From a virus (Duplodnaviria > Caudoviricetes), in the IMG/VR virus record IMGVR_UViG_3300020045_007216, positions 1-46,497 of that record: a stretch of 46,497 bases of DNA; one strand, 5' to 3'. The notes under the pieces are model-generated. The model saw nothing but the letters and a program-made list of their open reading frames with translations, searched no databases and had not been told where the DNA came from. Position numbers and translations under genes: made by a program. Below are positions 4,851-35,893 of the stretch, piece by piece (the first letter of the stretch is position 1; each line of letters begins with the position of its first letter).

Positions 4851-4993
4851 ACCCCACGCGGGCCTATGTAGCGCACACAGCCTTCAGAACGCACGAGGCG
4901 CTGGCGCATGTTGTCCAGGTGCTTACCGGACTGATAGTTCTGGCCCCAGACGATCAGCATCAGGAACACCAGCATAACGTCAGTGGCTCGCAT
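4847..4993 (-). CDS. Small membrane protein (48 aa)
   Basis: ATG 4993 overlaps the end of the upstream gene; one hydrophobic segment. Confidence 0.5.
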   Translation of the reverse strand: MRATDVMLVFLMLIVWGQNYQSGKHLDNMRQRLVRSEGCVRYIGPRGV

Positions 4994-5273
4994 GGCGTTT
5001 GAGCTCCGTCCGAACGATGTCGATAGTGCGCGGTGCATTGAAAACCAACCGGGCGCAGCGGCCCTGCATGGCGATCAACGCAACCGAAAGGTCCATGGAC
5101 GGAGCAGGCGCGTTTTGTCCGAGGTGCAGCGTAAAGGCTGGGCCACCGTCGAAATGGATCATGGCGCGCCCGTTGACGGCGCTGATCAGGTTCAGGGTCA
5201 GCGAACGACCGGTGCTGTTATCAAACAGGTCGACGGACTGGCCGGGTTTGCGGGTCAAAATCAGATTACTCAT
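4980..5273 (-). CDS. csrA: CsrA/RsmA-like RNA-binding regulator with internal duplication
   Basis: N-terminal LILTRKPGQSV and C-terminal RLVFNAPRTIDIVRTEL match CsrA MLILTRRVGET...RIGVNAPKEVSVHREEI; SD GGAG. Confidence 0.75.
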   Translation of the reverse strand: MSNLILTRKPGQSVDLFDNSTGRSLTLNLISAVNGRAMIHFDGGPAFTLHLGQNAPAPSMDLSVALIAMQGRCARLVFNAPRTIDIVRTELKRHASH

Positions 5274-5454
5274 TGCAGTAGAACTCCGGGTCGGTTTTAT
5301 CCTGGCGCTGATCGTTCAGAGCCTCGGCGGTTTGGGCGCAGATCATTGGGCCGGCAGCGGTGAAGTAAGCTGCGAAGGCGACCGGCTTATTGCTGCCGGG
5401 GCTCACAGCCAGTAGGACGGCGGTCACCACGGCCGAGGCCGCTGCGCCAATCAC
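5266..5454 (-). CDS. Small hypothetical protein with hydrophobic N-terminus
   Basis: Overlaps both neighbours in the operon. Confidence 0.55.
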   Translation of the reverse strand: MIGAAASAVVTAVLLAVSPGSNKPVAFAAYFTAAGPMICAQTAEALNDQRQDKTDPEFYCNE

Positions 5455-5648
5455 TCTTGACGCTCCCAGTGGCCAGGTCGAGCGTGCATGCAGGGAAAAA
5501 CACCGTCTATAACGATCTGGATTTCTTCGCCCTCATCATCAGTTATGGTTTTAAGCACTTCTGATCCAATAAATGGCGCTGCCTCGTAAACCCGACCGGG
5601 CGTGAGGTAGCTGCAATCCGCAGGTTTTCCGACAAGTTTGACTTTCAT
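5451..5648 (-). CDS. Small hypothetical protein (65 aa, MKVKLVGK...)
   Basis: ATG 5648 has a GGAG SD; the annotated upstream ATG 5690 lies inside the ribozyme. Confidence 0.7.
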   Translation of the reverse strand: MKVKLVGKPADCSYLTPGRVYEAAPFIGSEVLKTITDDEGEEIQIVIDGVFPCMHARPGHWERQE

Positions 5649-5666
5649 GACTACTGCTCCAGGGTT

Positions 5667-5750
5667 TTGAGCTGCCTCATCAGTGCGCATTCGCTCAAGT
5701 TGCGCAGACTCTACGGGCCGCCAGTTTCAAGGCCCGTAGCACGTTTCGGC
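5667..5750 (-). ncRNA. Type II hammerhead ribozyme with loop I/3'-tail pseudoknot; predicted cleavage between 5707 and 5706
   Basis: Minus strand: GCC GAAAC gtg CTACGGGCC-loop-GGCCCGTAG a GTC | TGCGCA acTTGAGCgaa TGCGCA CTGATGA GGC a GCTCAA; complete catalytic core and all three stems. Confidence 0.9.
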
Positions 5751-5759
5751 GTTGAGCTG

Positions 5760-5788
5760 ATATTATTCAGCCTTGAACACTGAGTCAA
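5760..5788 (-). promoter_or_regulatory. Sigma70-type phage promoter (family copy) driving the ribozyme/CsrA operon
   Basis: TTGACT-CAGTGTTCAAGGCTGAA-TAATAT, 17-bp spacer. Confidence 0.8.
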
Positions 5789-5796
5789 CAGATATT

Positions 5797-8139
5797 TTAA
5801 TCTTTGTGATAGCGCACACCTTCCCAGCCAGCGGCGCGGATCGGCCAGCCTCGCGCCCATGCGGGAACGTCGGTCAGGATGCGTTCAAATTCGCTCAGGG
5901 AACCGAAACCGTCAGGGACTTCGGCGGCAACTTCGTCATGCACGCGCAGCACGACCGGATAGCCGGCGGCCTCCAGGTTCACCACGGCATGGGCCATGAT
6001 GTCGCGGGCTGTGGCCTGCACCACGTTTTCGAAAAGGCGACCGCCGTAGGTCTCCATGCGAACCCAGCCCCTGGGGCCCATTTTGGCGTTGGTGTTCCAG
6101 GTCATATACGTGAGGCTGTAGCACTCAACCCAGCCGTCGCGCTTGGCGCCGTACCAGAGACGCGGCTGGTGGTAGGCCATGCGCCGGCCACTCAGCAGCG
6201 TGCAGTACAGCACGTCGTCGATAACCTGGTACGTGATGCCGCGGTAGAAGAAACACTGACCTGGGCTGAGAACAGCCTGCACCGCGCAGCCCTCAAGGCC
6301 GAAAAACTCACGACTGGTCGGGCGCCACGGCACGCCGCGGTACTGGCCACCCCACATTTCCTCAAACGCCGGGCTTGCAGCGCGCCAGGCCATCCAGGTC
6401 TGATCCGCTTGGGCCTTGTCACCCTCATAGCCGAAAGCAAACAACGCACCGCTGAAGCCGCCAAAACCGAGTCCGAGCTCGCACGGCTTTCCGATCTTCT
6501 GCCGATCGGGGTGTTTCTTGCCGCCGTTTGCCATATACCAGTCGTAGCTGCGCCCGGTCACGCCGGCGGCTCCGTGCAGATAGATGTCCTCCTTGTTTCG
6601 AAACGCTTCAATGCGCCACTCTTCGCCGGTCAGGACGGCCGAAACTACCGCCTCAATTGACGAGTAGTCAGAGCAGATCAACCGATGGCCCTCGCGCGCG
6701 ACCAGTAGTGACCGCACAATGCCGCTGATCGATAGCAGCGCGTCACCAAAGAACATTTCAAGGGCGTGCATTGATCGGGTTTGCAGAACTTCAAGAACCG
6801 GCTCGACACCCTCAAAGCACCAGCCCTTGTCACCTTCGACCGGGCTGACCTCGGTGCTGAAAGCCGCCGAGGCGTTACACCACGGGCACTGGTCGAAGTG
6901 CTTGGCGTAGGGCTTGCGACACAGCATATCGTCGCACCAGCGCAGATCCGGGCCAGCTTTTGGCAGGTTACCTGGCTGAACGTCGGCGTGGGTGTCGCGT
7001 CCAGTTCGCGCGCCGTGGTAAACGAACAGATCGCAAAGTCGCTCATCCTTGCTGGCGTGGTTAGCCATGGAGAAAACTTTCTTGACGCTAGCCGAGGCTG
7101 TCAAACCCCGAATTTCTAGCACGCGCCCGACTGGGTGCGGGTACTGGTCGCGCTGCTCATAAAGGAATTCGAGCTCTTCGGCAGCCAGGGACTTGACCGG
7201 CCGGCCATCGCTGCCGCATACCCCGTTATTCGCCAGCCACTCTACTAGTTTCTTGGCCTGACTGGTGCGCAGGCCGATGAGGTTGAACATTTCTTCATCA
7301 TAGGCAGCGAGAACCTGGTTAACGATGGCAATGCAGTCGTTAACCGCCGCCATGTCGACGCCGATACCTCGGCGATTGATGCGCTGATCGGCCAGCCAAT
7401 ACGCCAGTTCGCCAGGTGGCAGGTCAGGGCAACGAACGCTGACTAACGCCTCAACGTGGCAGTCGGTTTCACAATAGGCGTCAAGCTTCACGGCATCGAC
7501 AGGTTCCTCGGCGGGTAGCACGCGCCAGCGGGGGTCCTTTTTCGTCGGGTCCTTGGGCCAACTGAACAGCTTGAGCAGGCGTTTGCCCTCAGGGTCCTTT
7601 TGAGTTTCCAGCTTGAGCGCCGCGCCCACTTCGGCCAAGGCACCCGGCAGGCCGAACGCTCGGGATTTCGCGGAGCTGCACCGCCACTGGTTCGGCTGAA
7701 CGGCGGGCCAGCCGTATTTAGGCGTGCACACCTGCTCCCAGATCGTCATTTCAAACCCGGCGTTGTGTGCCTCGATCAATTTGCCGCTGGCGATGTGGTC
7801 GAATAAATCCTGTGGGTTGGGCTGACCTGGTTTCCAGCCGCGCACGCCGTGGCCGTCCTTGAGGTCGTATTTAAACGTCAGCACTTCAGTAGACGGGTGC
7901 TCCGCGTAAGCCCGCACACCGATAACTCCCAGGCCCTTGCTGCCCTTTGCAGCGCCTGGGGGGCCGGTCCAATAGCCGAAGGGCTTTTTATCCGTCGGGC
8001 CGCACCAGCGAAAGCCGGCGGCGCTGTACGTTTCGAAGTCGCATTCGGCCAGTACGGTGCTGAAGGCGGGGCCTACAGGTACTTGGGTGCCGTAAAGCAC
8101 GGCCGGTGGTGGAGGCGGCGGGGCTTGAAAATCAACCAT
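5797..8139 (-). CDS. Family A DNA polymerase with N-terminal exonuclease-like domain
   Basis: DFETYS, AHNAGFE, motif A CSDYSSIE, motif B GKPCELGLGFGG, ENVVQATARD, motif C VHDE. Confidence 0.93.
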   Translation of the reverse strand: MVDFQAPPPPPPAVLYGTQVPVGPAFSTVLAECDFETYSAAGFRWCGPTDKKPFGYWTGPPGAAKGSKGLGVIGVRAYAEHPSTEVLTFKYDLKDGHGVRGWKPGQPNPQDLFDHIASGKLIEAHNAGFEMTIWEQVCTPKYGWPAVQPNQWRCSSAKSRAFGLPGALAEVGAALKLETQKDPEGKRLLKLFSWPKDPTKKDPRWRVLPAEEPVDAVKLDAYCETDCHVEALVSVRCPDLPPGELAYWLADQRINRRGIGVDMAAVNDCIAIVNQVLAAYDEEMFNLIGLRTSQAKKLVEWLANNGVCGSDGRPVKSLAAEELEFLYEQRDQYPHPVGRVLEIRGLTASASVKKVFSMANHASKDERLCDLFVYHGARTGRDTHADVQPGNLPKAGPDLRWCDDMLCRKPYAKHFDQCPWCNASAAFSTEVSPVEGDKGWCFEGVEPVLEVLQTRSMHALEMFFGDALLSISGIVRSLLVAREGHRLICSDYSSIEAVVSAVLTGEEWRIEAFRNKEDIYLHGAAGVTGRSYDWYMANGGKKHPDRQKIGKPCELGLGFGGFSGALFAFGYEGDKAQADQTWMAWRAASPAFEEMWGGQYRGVPWRPTSREFFGLEGCAVQAVLSPGQCFFYRGITYQVIDDVLYCTLLSGRRMAYHQPRLWYGAKRDGWVECYSLTYMTWNTNAKMGPRGWVRMETYGGRLFENVVQATARDIMAHAVVNLEAAGYPVVLRVHDEVAAEVPDGFGSLSEFERILTDVPAWARGWPIRAAGWEGVRYHKD

Positions 8140-11343: not shown

Positions 11344-13296
11344 ATGAGCGCGTTTGATTTCAAGGCGAGCCTAATCGCCAGCGCAGTGCGTAAAACAGTG
11401 TCGCTGCGGCCTTATCAGTTGAAAGCCGAACAGGCGCTATATCTTGAATGGGACGTGGGGCACAAAAACGTCCTTGTGGTGATCCCAACGGGCGGGGGCA
11501 AAACTCGGCTCATCGCTTCGGTGATTTCCCGGCATGTGGGCGGGGCCTGTATTTTCGCACATCGCAAGGAACTGGTGGCGCAACTGGCCGGTACGCTGAA
11601 CGAATTCGGGATCCCGTTTCGACTGATCTGCGACCCTAAAGACCGTAAAGCAATCATCGCCGGGATTCTGCGTAAACAGGGCGTTTGCTATCACGACACG
11701 AACGCCGCGGTATCCGTGGCCAGCGCCGGCACCCTGTGGCGGATCCCGAAAGGCAAGAACGCGGCGCAGTATCGGGCGTATTTCGCATCGGTCACGCTGT
11801 GGGTATGCGATGAGGCGCATCACCAGCAGGCGGAAGGTGACGGCTCGGGCAAGGGCAACCAGTGGGCCAAGTGTGTGCAGGCGTTCCCGCACCCGAACCT
11901 AAAAGGCCTGGGCGTCACCGCAACACCGGCGCGATCGGACGGCGGCGGCCTGAGCCGGGAAACGGACGGCATGTTCGATGCCATGGTGATGGGCCCAACC
12001 CTGGCCGACCTGTTTGAAGACGGCTATCTGTGCCCCTACGATAAAATCTGCGTGCCCTGCCGTGTCGACTACGACCACATCGACGTGGGTGCAAGCGGCG
12101 AATTCGTTCAGGCAAAACTCGTTGCGGCGGAGGACGCAGACGAGGGACTGGTGGGTGATATCGTCGATAACTATCACCGTTTCGCGCCCGGCCTGAAAGG
12201 TATCTGTTTTGTTTCCAGTGTCGCCAAGGCTGAAGAAACCGCCCGGCGTTTCCGCGAATCAGGGGTGCCGGCGCTGGCGCTCAGTGGCGACACCGAAGAC
12301 GATATTCGGGATGCAGCTAAAGAGGACCTGGAGTCGGGCAAGCTGATGATGCTGGTGAACTGCAACCTCTACGGCGAAGGCAACGACCTGCCGGCGGTAG
12401 AAGTGGTGATTCTGGGCACAGGTACGGCCAGTCTGCCCCGGTTCATGCAATGGGTCGGCCGCCTCTATCGCCTGTTCCTGCACAAATGGCAGTGGGTCGG
12501 GTACGACGAAATCACGGCGGCCGAACGCCGCCAGCGCATCGCCGAAAGTCCTAAGCCGAAAGGCGTGTTGATCGACCATGGTTCCAACATCGTTCGCTTC
12601 AACGGGCCGCCCGAGGCACCACACCGTACCTGGCAACTGGGTCGGTCATCGAAGAAATCCAAAGCCGGCGAAACGGTGCCCTACCGCGTGTGCGCGAACC
12701 CCGGCCTGCGCCTGGCCAACCCCGACGGCCCGACCTGGGAGGCGTTCAGGGCAATCGGCTGGACGAACAACGCCATGCTAAGCGCCGGCCATTTACTGGA
12801 ATCGCCGCTGCCGTGTGCGCAGCCCTACGAACGGGTTTTCAAGGCGTGCCCCCACTGTGGATTTTTCCCCGAGCCGATCAGCCGTACGGATCCTGAACAC
12901 GTCGACGGCGACCTGACGCTGTTGACCGAAGAAATGCTGCAAGAGTTGTACGCCAGCGTGCGCGAGAAAGTGCCGACGCTTGAGGAATATCAAACCTGGT
13001 TAGCGTCAAGAAAAGTGCCGCAAATCGGATATGCCGCGCAGTCGAACCGGCACCGGGCGCACTTGGCCGAAATCGCACACCTCAAATGGGTAATGGCCAT
13101 GTGGGGCGGCTGGCGTAAACAGAAAGGCGATGACGACTCACAAATGCAGCGCCGCTTCTACCACCTGTTTGGACTTGACGTGATAAGCGCCCAGGGTCTC
13201 GACGCTGGCGCGGCGGTCGAACTGCGCGAACGGATCGTCAGTAAATTAAGCCTTGACGGCGTGTCCATGCCCGAATACATTGCGGCTGTAAATTAA
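11344..13296 (+). CDS. Superfamily 2 (DEAH) helicase with C-terminal Zn ribbon
   Basis: LRPYQ, PTGGGKT, DEAHH, TATPAR, QWVGR, CPHCG; ATG 11344 preferred over TTG 11314. Confidence 0.92.
   Translation: MSAFDFKASLIASAVRKTVSLRPYQLKAEQALYLEWDVGHKNVLVVIPTGGGKTRLIASVISRHVGGACIFAHRKELVAQLAGTLNEFGIPFRLICDPKDRKAIIAGILRKQGVCYHDTNAAVSVASAGTLWRIPKGKNAAQYRAYFASVTLWVCDEAHHQQAEGDGSGKGNQWAKCVQAFPHPNLKGLGVTATPARSDGGGLSRETDGMFDAMVMGPTLADLFEDGYLCPYDKICVPCRVDYDHIDVGASGEFVQAKLVAAEDADEGLVGDIVDNYHRFAPGLKGICFVSSVAKAEETARRFRESGVPALALSGDTEDDIRDAAKEDLESGKLMMLVNCNLYGEGNDLPAVEVVILGTGTASLPRFMQWVGRLYRLFLHKWQWVGYDEITAAERRQRIAESPKPKGVLIDHGSNIVRFNGPPEAPHRTWQLGRSSKKSKAGETVPYRVCANPGLRLANPDGPTWEAFRAIGWTNNAMLSAGHLLESPLPCAQPYERVFKACPHCGFFPEPISRTDPEHVDGDLTLLTEEMLQELYASVREKVPTLEEYQTWLASRKVPQIGYAAQSNRHRAHLAEIAHLKWVMAMWGGWRKQKGDDDSQMQRRFYHLFGLDVISAQGLDAGAAVELRERIVSKLSLDGVSMPEYIAAVN
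13253..13281 (+). promoter_or_regulatory. Promoter family copy upstream of MazG
   Basis: TTGACG-GCGTGTCCATGCCCGAA-TACATT. Confidence 0.7.
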
Positions 13297-22466: not shown

Positions 22467-22907
22467 AATTAGCCCCGCCTTTGAGCGGGGTTTTTAATTT
22501 CTATAAATCGTAAAATTTATAATGAATCACTGCTGTCCGATATAAATTTATAATAGTTGTGCGACATGCGACATGGTTTGCGACATACAGTGCGACATGG
22601 TTTTGAGTATGTCGCATCGCTGAGAGCCTTTAAACCCGGAGCTTTCGGGAACCTATGCGACATAGGCGACATACTTTTAAGTTAAATGATTGTAATAATT
22701 ATAAGGCGTTGCGGGCATGACGCCGGTGGCGCTGGGCTGCGCGGCCACGGCTGGGGCTGCGGGAGACCGAAAACATGTCGCATATCGCGCATATGTCGCA
22801 TATCGCGCACTTTTTTCAACAGAATCAACAACTTGCGACATGCGACCATGGTTGCGACACCCCTAAAAACCATGCGACATAGATTTGAGTGTCGAAATTA
22901 TAAAATT
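22457..22907. repeat. Iteron-like GCGACA array with AT-rich flanks; putative replication origin or packaging site
   Basis: 12 exact GCGACA (9 on +, 3 on -); flanking 14-bp direct repeat GAAATTATAAAATT; non-coding, between primase and terS. Confidence 0.7.
22471..22496 (+). terminator. Intrinsic terminator after the primase gene
   Basis: CCCGC-CTTTGA-GCGGG followed by a T tract. Confidence 0.7.
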
Positions 22908-23734: not shown

Positions 23735-25011
23735 CGAACGCCGTGGTGAAACTTCCGCCTAAACTGGTGTCGATATTCGCCCCGGCCAGGGGGTCGGTGC
23801 AGTACCGCGGGGCGTGGGGCGGTCGGGGGTCAGGCAAGTCGATGAACTTCGCCAAGATGGCCGCGATCTGGGGCGTCGTTTACCCCCTGCGCGTACTGTG
23901 CGTGCGCGAGATTCAGGCGTCGATCAAGGAGTCATTTCACGCCGAGCTGAAGGCAGCCATTGAATCCGAGCACTGGCTGGCCAACGCCTACGATGTCGGC
24001 AAGGATTATTTGCGCAGCAGGGTCAACCAGACCGAATTCCTGTTCAAAGGGTTGTATTCGAACCTGACCAGTGTCAAGTCCACGGCTAAAGTCGGTCTGA
24101 CGATCGTTGAAGAGGCGGAGGACGTCAGCGAGGAGGCATGGCTGGCCCTGGAGGCCACGGTCCTGCGTGAGCCGGATTCGGAGCTCTGGGCGCTGTGGAA
24201 CCCGAAGCTCGAAGGCTCACCGGTCGACAAGCGTTTCAGGGGCTCGGACACCGAACCGGCCATGTACCCCGGCGCCCTCATCGCCGAAATGAATTACCGC
24301 GACAACCCGTGGTTCCCTGCCGGCCTGGAAACCCTGCGCCTGGCTCAAAAAACATCGCTCGATAAGGAGACTTACGCCTGGATCTGGGAAGGGCAATATC
24401 TCAAGAAATCCAAGGCGTCGATTCTCGGCCACCACTGGGATGAGGGGGTGCGGTTTCCAGACGATACGTGGCTGGGCCCATACCACGGCCTCGACTTCGG
24501 GTTTGCGCAGGATCCAACGGCAGCCGTCCGGTGCTGGATCAGCCCCGACGAAACCGAGCTGTACATCGACGCCGAGGCGGGCCAGGTCGGATTGGAGCTC
24601 GACGACACAGCTAAATTCGTCAAGGAGCGCATACCGGGCATCGAGAAACACCAGGTTGTCGCCGATAGCGCACGGCCTGAGTCGATAGCCCATCTGGCGC
24701 GCGCGAAGGGCCCGAACGGCCTCAACAAGGACCACTATTTGCCGTACATCGAAGGCGCCGTGAAGGGCCAGGGCTCGGTCGAAGACGGCCTGGACCACCT
24801 CAAGACCTACAAAATCATCGTGCACCCGGCCTGCCCCAAGACACAGGAAGAGCTCAAGAAGTACAGCTACAAGGTCGACAGGCTCACAGGCGAGGTGCTG
24901 CCGATTATCGTCGACAAGTGGAACCACTACATCGACGCCCTGCGCTATGCACTGGAGAAAGTCATGAAGGCCAAGGGCAACATGCTGGGTATTCTGCTGA
25001 AAAGGCGTTGA
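23731..25011 (+). CDS. terL: Terminase large subunit (PBSX-family)
   Basis: GGRGSGKS, IVEEAE, WNP, GLDFGFAQDP, ADSARPE, NHYIDALRYA. Confidence 0.95.
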   Translation: MTNAVVKLPPKLVSIFAPARGSVQYRGAWGGRGSGKSMNFAKMAAIWGVVYPLRVLCVREIQASIKESFHAELKAAIESEHWLANAYDVGKDYLRSRVNQTEFLFKGLYSNLTSVKSTAKVGLTIVEEAEDVSEEAWLALEATVLREPDSELWALWNPKLEGSPVDKRFRGSDTEPAMYPGALIAEMNYRDNPWFPAGLETLRLAQKTSLDKETYAWIWEGQYLKKSKASILGHHWDEGVRFPDDTWLGPYHGLDFGFAQDPTAAVRCWISPDETELYIDAEAGQVGLELDDTAKFVKERIPGIEKHQVVADSARPESIAHLARAKGPNGLNKDHYLPYIEGAVKGQGSVEDGLDHLKTYKIIVHPACPKTQEELKKYSYKVDRLTGEVLPIIVDKWNHYIDALRYALEKVMKAKGNMLGILLKRR

Positions 25012-25142: not shown

Positions 25143-25219
25143 GCAGCCGTAGCTCAGATGGTCAGAGCGCCCGCCTGTCACGCGGGAGGCCGAGGGTTCG
25201 AAGCCCTTCGGTTGCGCCA
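25143..25219 (+). tRNA. tRNA-Asp(GTC) with encoded CCA
   Basis: Acceptor GCAGCCG/CGGTTGC; D arm GCTC/GAGC; anticodon arm CCCGC-CTGTCAC-GCGGG; GTTCGAAG T loop; 3' GCCA. Confidence 0.95.
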
Positions 25220-34860: not shown

Positions 34861-35256
34861 GTGGAACTGACCCTAGCCGACGCCAAGTCCTTTCTCGCAT
34901 CGTTGGGCATCACGTCGATTCCTGACGTTTTCCTCCAGTTGCTGGTGAACCAGATCAACTCTGTCGACGAGTGCCTGGCGCTGCATGGCTACTCGGCGAA
35001 CAATATCGCGCTGATGAAATATTACGCCTTGGCGTTGCTCGGCATCATGCAGCCCGGTCGCCAGATCACCCAGCAGCGGGCGCCGTCCGGGGCATCACAG
35101 TCGTACGCCTTCGGAACGCTCGAAGAGGGCTATAAAAAATACTCGGTGCTGCTACGCGGCCTGGACCTTGAAGACTGCCTTGGCGCGATACTGCCGGCTG
35201 ATCCGTTCGCCTTGACGTGCGGCATGATTGTCGGGAGGGCGGTGCGCGATGAGTAG
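34861..35256 (+). CDS. Head-tail adaptor protein
   Basis: Position; RQITQQRAPSGASQSY motif. Confidence 0.65.
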   Translation: MELTLADAKSFLASLGITSIPDVFLQLLVNQINSVDECLALHGYSANNIALMKYYALALLGIMQPGRQITQQRAPSGASQSYAFGTLEEGYKKYSVLLRGLDLEDCLGAILPADPFALTCGMIVGRAVRDE

Positions 35257-35893
35257 TCTAAAAGGCGGCGGCATTTATTTGATAAGAAATACCCAAAACG
35301 GTAACTTTTACATCGGCTCGGCCGTCTGTTTTTCGAATAGGTGGGCGGTTCATCGGCGGGCCTTAAGGAAAGGAGACAGCGGCTGTCGGCGGCTTCAAAA
35401 CGCCTGGAACTTGTACGGCGAGCAGGCTTTTGTATTTGAAGTTTTAGAGCACGTATGCGCGGCTGAACACTTGATTGAAATCGAACAAGGCTATTTGGAC
35501 GCCCTTTCCCCGCCTTATAATATCTGCAAAGTTGCAGGCTCGGCCCTAGGGACTCGGCACTCTCAAGAAACTCGGATCAAGATGTCTGATCGCAAAAAAG
35601 GCCCCTTGAACCCGTTTTTTGGGCGCACAGGTTCCGACCATCCGCGTTTCAATAAAGGCCATTCAGCTGAGCACAAAGCTCAGATGTCGAAAAAACATTC
35701 CGGCGCGTCAAATCCGATGTATGGGGTTCGCCCGGCCCATGCAAAGTTGGAAACTTCCACTGTACGCGCTATAAAAGACATGCTAAGTCTAGGGATTAGC
35801 GGTCGTCAAATCGCTGACTTCTTTGGGATAAGCTCGGTCAACGTGAGCCAGATTAAAACAGGCCGCAGCTATGCGTCAGTGGGGCAACCATGA
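35249..35893 (+). mobile_element. Free-standing GIY-YIG homing endonuclease gene with NUMOD3-like repeats and C-terminal HTH
   Basis: GIYLIRN...FYIGSA...RW..H; HSQETRIKMS, NPFFGR, HSAEHKAQMS, NPMYG; AT-richer than its flanks. Confidence 0.88.

Follow-up and report, generated by a model that had tools for sequence, protein, structure and literature searches.

The minus strand of the window—the whole stretch of DNA analysed, 46,497 nucleotides in length—carries a real hammerhead motif, located at the predicted start site of a promoter that directly follows the stop codon of a DNA polymerase gene. Our main reading, to which a probability of roughly 60% is given, is that of a hammerhead of an ordinary family type that was placed at the promoter by a deletion, is likely to cut, and serves as mRNA punctuation in the way of other phage hammerheads. 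An ordinary gene-junction ribozyme is thus considered likelier than a dedicated switch.

The motif, its promoter and its genome setting

A base-by-base check of the pairs placed all the ribozyme, promoter and Shine-Dalgarno (SD) elements on the minus strand at the coordinates given in Table 1, in agreement with an earlier note on this DNA, whose claim of a type II hammerhead with a loop I pseudoknot is borne out in the core, the stems and the 6-bp pseudoknot. Every pair of stems I, II and III and of the pseudoknot is Watson-Crick, and the core is unmutated (C3 U4 G5 A6 N7 G8 A9, G12 A13 A14 A15, U16 H17) by the criteria found in the available part of PMC3088659. Loops close stems I and III, and stem II is open, as type II requires, and the core-adjacent pairs 10.1-11.1, 1.1-2.1 and 15.1-16.1 are G-C, U-A and A-U, respectively, with no mispair. 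Concerning stem III, the 9-bp helix described earlier is present (5739-5731/5719-5711), but it is separated from the core by a 3x1 internal loop (5742-5740 against 5710), which follows the pair C15.2-G16.2.

The Rfam search suggested for Hammerhead_II returned RF02276 as the best match in 5400-6000, with a score of 26.8 bits (E 0.0031) that lies under the gathering score of 37 bits; at the gathering threshold, the whole window has no ribozyme match. The motif is, on its sequence, assigned to the type II class by the defining features and not as an above-cut-off Rfam match. The bare core pattern is weak by itself, being present in 13 of 100 shuffles; when a 6-bp stem I and a 3-bp stem II are demanded as well, the window yields one instance and 60 Markov-resampled genomes yield none. 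A second GAAAC (5728, in loop III) was tried as an alternative core and rejected, having a weak stem II and no stem III. Among GenBank phages, no DNA similar to the ribozyme region was found, just four chance matches at E 6, and the 22-mer at the 3' end of the ribozyme has no exact match in IMG/VR.

Table 1. Coordinates of the features in and around the hammerhead leader (window numbering)
Feature	Coordinates	Strand	Remark
Family A DNA polymerase	5797..8139	-	last gene of replication block
Sigma70-type phage promoter TTGACT-17-TAATAT	5760..5788	-	directly after polymerase stop
Upstream GCTCAA, spanning predicted start ~5753	5752..5757	-	likely promoter heritage
4-nt microhomology AACG at putative deletion joint	5750..5753	-	aligns both sides of extra DNA in X2
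Stem II, 5' arm	5748..5750	-	pairs with 5676-5674
Core G12 A13 A14 A15.1 C15.2 (GAAAC)	5743..5747	-	
Stem III: 3x1 internal loop, 9-bp helix, 11-nt loop	5710..5742	-	
GUC triplet; predicted cut 5707/5706	5707..5709	-	hammerhead consensus (PMC3088659, available part)
Stem I, 6 bp (5706-5701/5689-5684), with 11-nt loop I	5684..5706	-	
Core C3-A9 (CUGAUGA)	5677..5683	-	
Stem II, 3' arm	5674..5676	-	
Pseudoknot 3' strand GCTCAA	5667..5672	-	6 bp with loop I 5698-5693
Shine-Dalgarno GGAG	5657..5660	-	
ORF1, 65 aa, phrog_6261, function unassigned	5451..5648	-	ATG 5648
ORF2, 62 aa, small protein	5266..5454	-	look-alikes across the clade, judged by eye
CsrA-like gene, 97 aa, third ORF	4980..5273	-	PF02599, 29.9 bits
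ORF4, 48 aa	4847..4993	-	final gene ahead of convergent lysis genes

The promoter claimed in the earlier note is present as a site, but the consensus scan alone is not significant (2 found vs 1.4 expected). Support comes from 13 relatives that keep it in the same position behind the polymerase stop, as well as from look-alike promoters elsewhere in the window, built of TTGAC, a 17-nt spacer usually ending in GAA, and then TA (sites at 13253+, 15493+, 17119+, 25008+, 26052+, 26933+, 34811-, 11329-, 9431- and 5788-). Transcription is predicted to start at about 5753. One of the look-alikes, at 34811-34743 (-), is a paralogous promoter with a short leader that, like the ribozyme leader, opens with GAAAC and closes with CCCTGGAG; it precedes a 200-aa ORF, presumably part of a sliding-clamp beta subunit. 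The site at 25008 lies upstream of a tRNA gene with the anticodon GUC (Asp, 65 bits) at 25143-25216 (+). It may also be mentioned that the ribozyme-free leaders of seven relatives (L004, L006, L008, L013, L157, L158 and L160) open with the same GAAAC that makes up the 5' half of a type II core, followed there by an AAC-rich run resembling many hammerhead tails, as possible relics or by coincidence, and that an inverted repeat (5772-5755) straddles the -10 box, its hairpin in read-through RNA being able, with flanking pairs, to occupy the 5' arm of stem II.

The virus record that makes up the window is complete at 46.5 kb and has direct terminal repeats. At the DNA level, even its nearest named relatives are remote (65-69%), with the Pseudomonas phages vsMR and MR14 at the top, and therefore a Pseudomonas-like host is suggested. 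Downstream of the polymerase, four small overlapping ORFs on the minus strand converge on the lysis genes. Since the terminator scan found no terminator-like site between the polymerase stop and the promoter, read-through RNA is plausible; a terminator-like site at 5063-5047 was disregarded, with 7 such sites found vs 6.4 expected. Orthologues of ORF1 occur in L006, L007 and L155 with no ribozyme ahead of them, and the related-locus search with ORF1 gave no confirmed locus among 97 candidate stretches.

The earlier note saw in the hammerhead the leader of an operon for a CsrA-like regulator. The gene does belong to the operon, but it comes third among the ORFs, beginning 375 nt beyond the first ATG. 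Its PF02599 match exceeds the cut-off of 27 bits on residues 62-93 only, and the PDB sequence matches of the protein to CsrA/RsmE are weak (best E 0.062); the gene is longer than a typical CsrA and apparently internally duplicated. The CsrA-like proteins of the clade (window, L004, L005, L007-L010, L013, L141, L155 and L158) span 86-110 aa, with two PF02599 matches in one ORF in five of seven records, and the apparently duplicated protein may, judged by its sequence, represent the CsrA dimer in a single chain. The gene scores above the Pfam cut-off in 7 of 10 related whole records, among them six of seven IMG/VR genomes, where it is kept without the ribozyme, which speaks against the link drawn earlier between the two; since the gene and the operon persist without the ribozyme in relatives, neither needs it. 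A general association of CsrA with hammerheads was likewise rejected: a clade profile gave no strong match in 145 hammerhead-pattern loci, 44 of them short-flanked (control 3/5), the one weak match having E 0.0065. Protein searches with the CsrA-like gene, and likewise with its vsMR homologue, returned only the self-match. In phage vsMR itself, a 46-bit type II hammerhead starts at the stop of a CsrA-like gene of this kind (L141:1501-1581, that is, vsMR 22481-22561); CUGAAGA stands in its core, and stem II is preceded by one additional U.

The hammerhead family and the origin of the position

A core-based pattern scan of IMG/VR yielded 124 loci, some 650 stretches being estimated from 12 of 64 parts; together with the window copy, the family set comprises 125 distinct motifs, a sample biased toward similar motifs because the pattern was built from the window core. 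In this set, an SD, a start codon and an ORF follow within 70 nt in 104 of 125 (control 17% of 2500), the distance from A9 to the start being 28 nt in the window copy and 29 nt as the family median. An ORF stop lies within 10 nt of stem II in 100/120 (control 86/1763, 4.9%), and a promoter-like site directly upstream was found in just 4/124 (control 0.9%), three of those four with a stop nearby. The second pair of stem II is Watson-Crick in 121 of the 125, with four pair types. A pseudoknot of at least five pairs is formed in 41/125, compared with about 5% of mismatched loop/tail pairs. When a second scan kept just the 3' tail constant, 21 loci emerged; loop I contains the complementary TGAGC in 14 of these, and the seven without it have no stem I. 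Since selection on the tail alone recovers its loop I complement, the pseudoknot is independently supported and the tail is a recurring variant. The window copy is thus normal for the family except for two traits, namely, the missing upstream stop and the weakest stem III junction. In two other loci, L121 (by eye) and L123 (by scan), the hammerhead also appears to lie just after a promoter-like site, and L123 has an (AAC)n run ahead of its SD.

Searches with the polymerase provided 16 distinct close relatives, MR14 counted. A promoter right after the polymerase stop, followed by a short leader, is present in 13 of them, and a long ORF stands there in the remaining three. In L005 and L011 this ORF is 210-251 aa long and occupies the promoter slot, with a similar start in L161; we take these ORFs to resemble homing endonucleases, as does a 221-aa ORF located amid structural genes of the window at 35228-35893 (+). 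All three hammerhead types were scanned for in the retrieved flanks, with none found in 15 relatives (all except L157, which ends just after the leader). A whole-record search with RF02276 in 10 related records gave no match in eight and one real match, in vsMR; a further match in L142 (16.9 bits) was rejected as lying inside a coding sequence. Conservation of the core in related phages, named earlier as a check, gave a divided answer, since the core is present in two relatives and absent from 15.

The evidence on the origin of the position comes from two contigs of public runs, X1 and X2, in which the promoter and the ribozyme align separately, with 213 and 191 letters between them, respectively. 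Two further runs, X3 and X4, gave no alignment, and no RNA run was listed for the region, which has no bearing on its expression. It should be noted that the two contigs come from two studies, are 90-95% alike and have most of their differences in common, so that they represent nearly the same variant. A TAA precedes stem II by 2 nt in X1 and by 7 nt in X2, and the visible upstream letters (30) differ between them; a stop codon abutting stem II upstream is absent in the window. The presence of this TAA is the reason why the window is read as the derived allele. The proposal of a dedicated operon leader is not supported, in view of the close relatives carrying the ribozyme ~200 nt downstream, after the TAA, and of the 15 relatives without any ribozyme. 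Against X1/X2, no listed difference falls in 5667-5719, compared with 7-8% in the flanks (P about 0.01-0.02, one effective comparison), and three listed differences fall in loop III (5720-5722), with the provision that 6-7 of the 11-12 differences are unlisted, lie near the piece ends and could fall in 5725-5750.

In the ribozyme-free relatives, a variable first gene of 44-86 aa occupies the slot of the extra DNA of X1/X2, and its size fits; L007 and L155 have a common leader before the ORF1 orthologue, and the slot is occupied in just one of the two. The extra ~200 bases of X1/X2 are therefore likely to be a short gene, bearing in mind that 30 letters of this DNA are visible. Taken together, the promoter-adjacent position probably derives from the loss of ~200 bases, likely such a gene, the direction—deletion and not gain—being suggested by parsimony; we infer that the window holds an empty-slot allele of the normal stop/ribozyme/SD cassette. 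As a separate observation, a conserved GC hairpin, GCCCC-N6-GGGGC, is found downstream of the polymerase between operon genes in 8 of the 15 ribozyme-free relatives (L001, L006, L008, L013, L155, L158, L160 and L161), mostly after the first gene, i.e. in the slot taken by the hammerhead in X1/X2; it may be an interchangeable punctuation element.

Proposed function and competing readings

According to the main reading, the deletion of a short variable first gene would have brought a ribozyme from the stop-codon side next to the promoter. The transcript would then fold and be cut after C5707; for a start at 5753, a 5' fragment of ~47 nt is predicted, in accord with the released RNA of ~46 nt proposed in the earlier note. 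Stem I and both pseudoknot strands would remain on the 3' product, whose paired 5'-OH end would lie a short distance ahead of the SD, and the downstream genes would gain a uniform 5' end, independent of upstream transcription. A 5'-OH end should be a poor substrate for the 5'-monophosphate route, and so should the hairpin-capped mRNA predicted here; such an end would resist the RppH/RNase E 5'-end route and the message would be stabilised. The RNase E 5'-end route needs a monophosphate produced by RppH, and both enzymes prefer single-stranded ends, whereas RNase J1 attacks 5'-OH ends, as in the glmS case (both from the available part of PMC3997798); the sign of any stability effect would therefore depend on the host. 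The processing of polycistrons with altered stability or translation is a suggested, unproven role of hammerheads (PMC6765202, in part), and type I hammerheads aid translation in fungal RNA viruses (PMC13725137, in part). With the ribozyme absent from 15 relatives, any benefit must be optional. The same gene is preceded by a natural allelic series—the ribozyme at the promoter in the window, the ribozyme after an extra stretch in X1 and X2, a GC hairpin after the first gene in L155, and nothing in L007—so that the idea of stabilisation or insulation is easy to test.

Whether the motif cuts at all depends largely on stem III. In ViennaRNA folding, which leaves out the pseudoknot energy, a penalty of 3.6 kcal/mol attaches to closing C15.2-G16.2 onto stem III, the highest among the 125 homologues, the window copy being also the single one of the 125 with no further contiguous pair after C15.2-G16.2; the hammerhead fold without the pseudoknot lies 4.9 kcal/mol above the minimum, with 20/125 as bad or worse. 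Due to this weakest junction, activity is likely, not certain, and the window hammerhead is, to judge from its sequence, likely self-cutting, after 5707. An alternative would be a slow or inactive ribozyme of real hammerhead descent, in which the 3x1 loop and competing folds leave little cleavage and at most a structured leader. It draws on the closing cost and the lone lack of a contiguous pair just mentioned, as well as on the changes at 5720-5722 vs X1/X2, which undo four pairs by which stem III would be lengthened in these relatives. This alternative is possible, if on the unlikely side, given that the core is perfect, the 6-bp pseudoknot is intact and the 53 nt that comprise core, stem I and pseudoknot show no listed change against X1/X2. 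Moreover, the 2-nt asymmetry of the stem III loop is probably common to X1/X2, the alignments being ungapped, and so does not represent recent decay, and the 46-bit hammerhead of phage vsMR likewise has a mismatch directly after C15.2-G16.2. No rate data for a loop beside C15.2-G16.2 were found in the literature searched, which included few subscription papers; if active, the bulged stem III would reveal what degree of weakness in helix III is tolerated by a pseudoknotted hammerhead.

The remaining alternatives turn on the sequence repeated at the two ends of the leader. The earlier note proposed that the second GCTCAA upstream, whole only where RNA reads through from the polymerase operon, could compete for loop I and make cleavage depend on the promoter; loop I would then be captured in such RNA, and only the locally started RNA would be cut. 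As an evolved promoter-dependent switch, this is decidedly unlikely: the same hexamer stands in the same place in the ribozyme-free L008 and is probably promoter sequence, and an upstream copy accompanies just one of the 41 motifs with a pseudoknot of at least five pairs, the window copy, and none of the 14 tail-matched homologues, the tail/loop pair itself recurring in the family. In X1/X2, the promoter is ~200 nt away. The 8-nt flank repeat, the longest among the 125 loci, has a null frequency of 0.4% per locus for at least 8 nt, but one 8-mer in 125 loci is about the null expectation (0.5). The competing pairing does reach P 0.49-0.94 for 5' ends at 5757-5770; RNAs with such ends are, however, not expected, and in read-through RNAs with starts from 5780 upstream to 6000, the GCTCAA pairs with loop I at P of at most 0.2 because it is tied up in the -10-box hairpin or displaced by another spacer segment. 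As for the energies, read-through RNAs with 5' ends at 5770-6000 and the 3' end at 5660 place the hammerhead 5.2-9.2 kcal/mol above the minimum, compared with 4.9 for the promoter transcript, i.e. a penalty of 0.3-4.3 kcal/mol with the short 3' end (pseudoknot energy left out); for a 3' end at 5600 it is smaller, between -0.2 and +2.8 kcal/mol. A side effect of the upstream GCTCAA on cleavage is possible; selection for a switch is unsupported. A related scenario combines gene loss with these folds: the loss would have made a +1 insulator with promoter-dependent cleavage, the local RNA being cut and capped and the read-through RNA misfolding via promoter-derived segments and remaining uncut. 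Taken as a whole it is unlikely; if true, a regulatory ribozyme switch would be seen at its birth, with natural alleles for comparison. It is improbable, too, that the pseudoknot strand acts as a translational switch, pairing with either loop I or the SD so that the fold, cut or uncut, sets the initiation of ORF1. An anti-SD hairpin is predicted at 5674-5654 (-) with -4.4 kcal/mol, and the probability of an unpaired SD rises from 0.28-0.36 to 0.71-0.74 with the pseudoknot strands held (blocked by hand in ViennaRNA), but the effect is small and such complementarity of at least 4 nt exists in just 2 of 37 homologues. Finally, the 8-nt direct repeat (5759-5752 and 5674-5667) could be viewed as the target-site duplication of a mobile RNA cassette inserted into the leader, the more so as the closest ribozyme-free leaders have both ends of the window leader. 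This origin is hardly credible, being largely refuted by X1/X2, in which this ribozyme and its tail stand ~200 nt away from the promoter; in addition, the downstream repeat copy is the pseudoknot strand of the family, and a flank repeat of more than 6 nt is seen in no other homologue.

Comparison with known systems

The hammerhead at the promoter has its closest counterpart in the type II hammerheads (RF02276; Perreault et al. 2011), described in the available part of PMC3088659 as having a pseudoknot between loop I and the tail and forming clusters that flank prophage genes. Shared with them are the permutation, the full core, the short stem II and the pseudoknot, together with the phage intergenic site beside small variable genes, for which the processing of polycistronic mRNA was proposed. 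The window copy differs in the 3x1 loop next to the core, the long stem III, the Rfam score under the cut-off and the location at the promoter start instead of after a stop codon. The literature searched, with few subscription papers within its scope, contained no study in which a phage type II hammerhead located at a promoter start was put to the test. A similar layout is that of the HHphage of haloviruses HF1/HF2, a hammerhead lying upstream, by 13 nt, of the ORF that comes first in an early polycistronic transcript, the 5' end of which was mapped within 3 nt of the hammerhead cut (PMC3088659, same part); that one, however, has a core variant and precedes a helicase in an archaeal virus, whereas the window has the consensus core in a relative of Pseudomonas phages.

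With regard to the leader position, the glmS ribozyme-riboswitch is alike in its self-cleavage in the 5' leader leaving a 5'-OH coding fragment, the cut being predicted in the window, but it belongs to another ribozyme class, is ligand-activated and yields a 5'-OH product degraded by RNase J1 (PMC3997798, in part); no ligand or conserved control element was found at the window ribozyme. RiboJ, located between promoter and RBS, removes upstream RNA and leaves a uniform, hairpin-capped 5' end, and in E. coli the gain was about twofold for mRNA and two- to tenfold for protein (PMC6206723, in part). It is an engineered device, consisting of an sTRSV-derived ribozyme and an added hairpin, so that the likeness is one of working and not of membership. 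Both the ribozyme and the layout are thus known from other systems, and the uncommon position is probably explained by the deletion.
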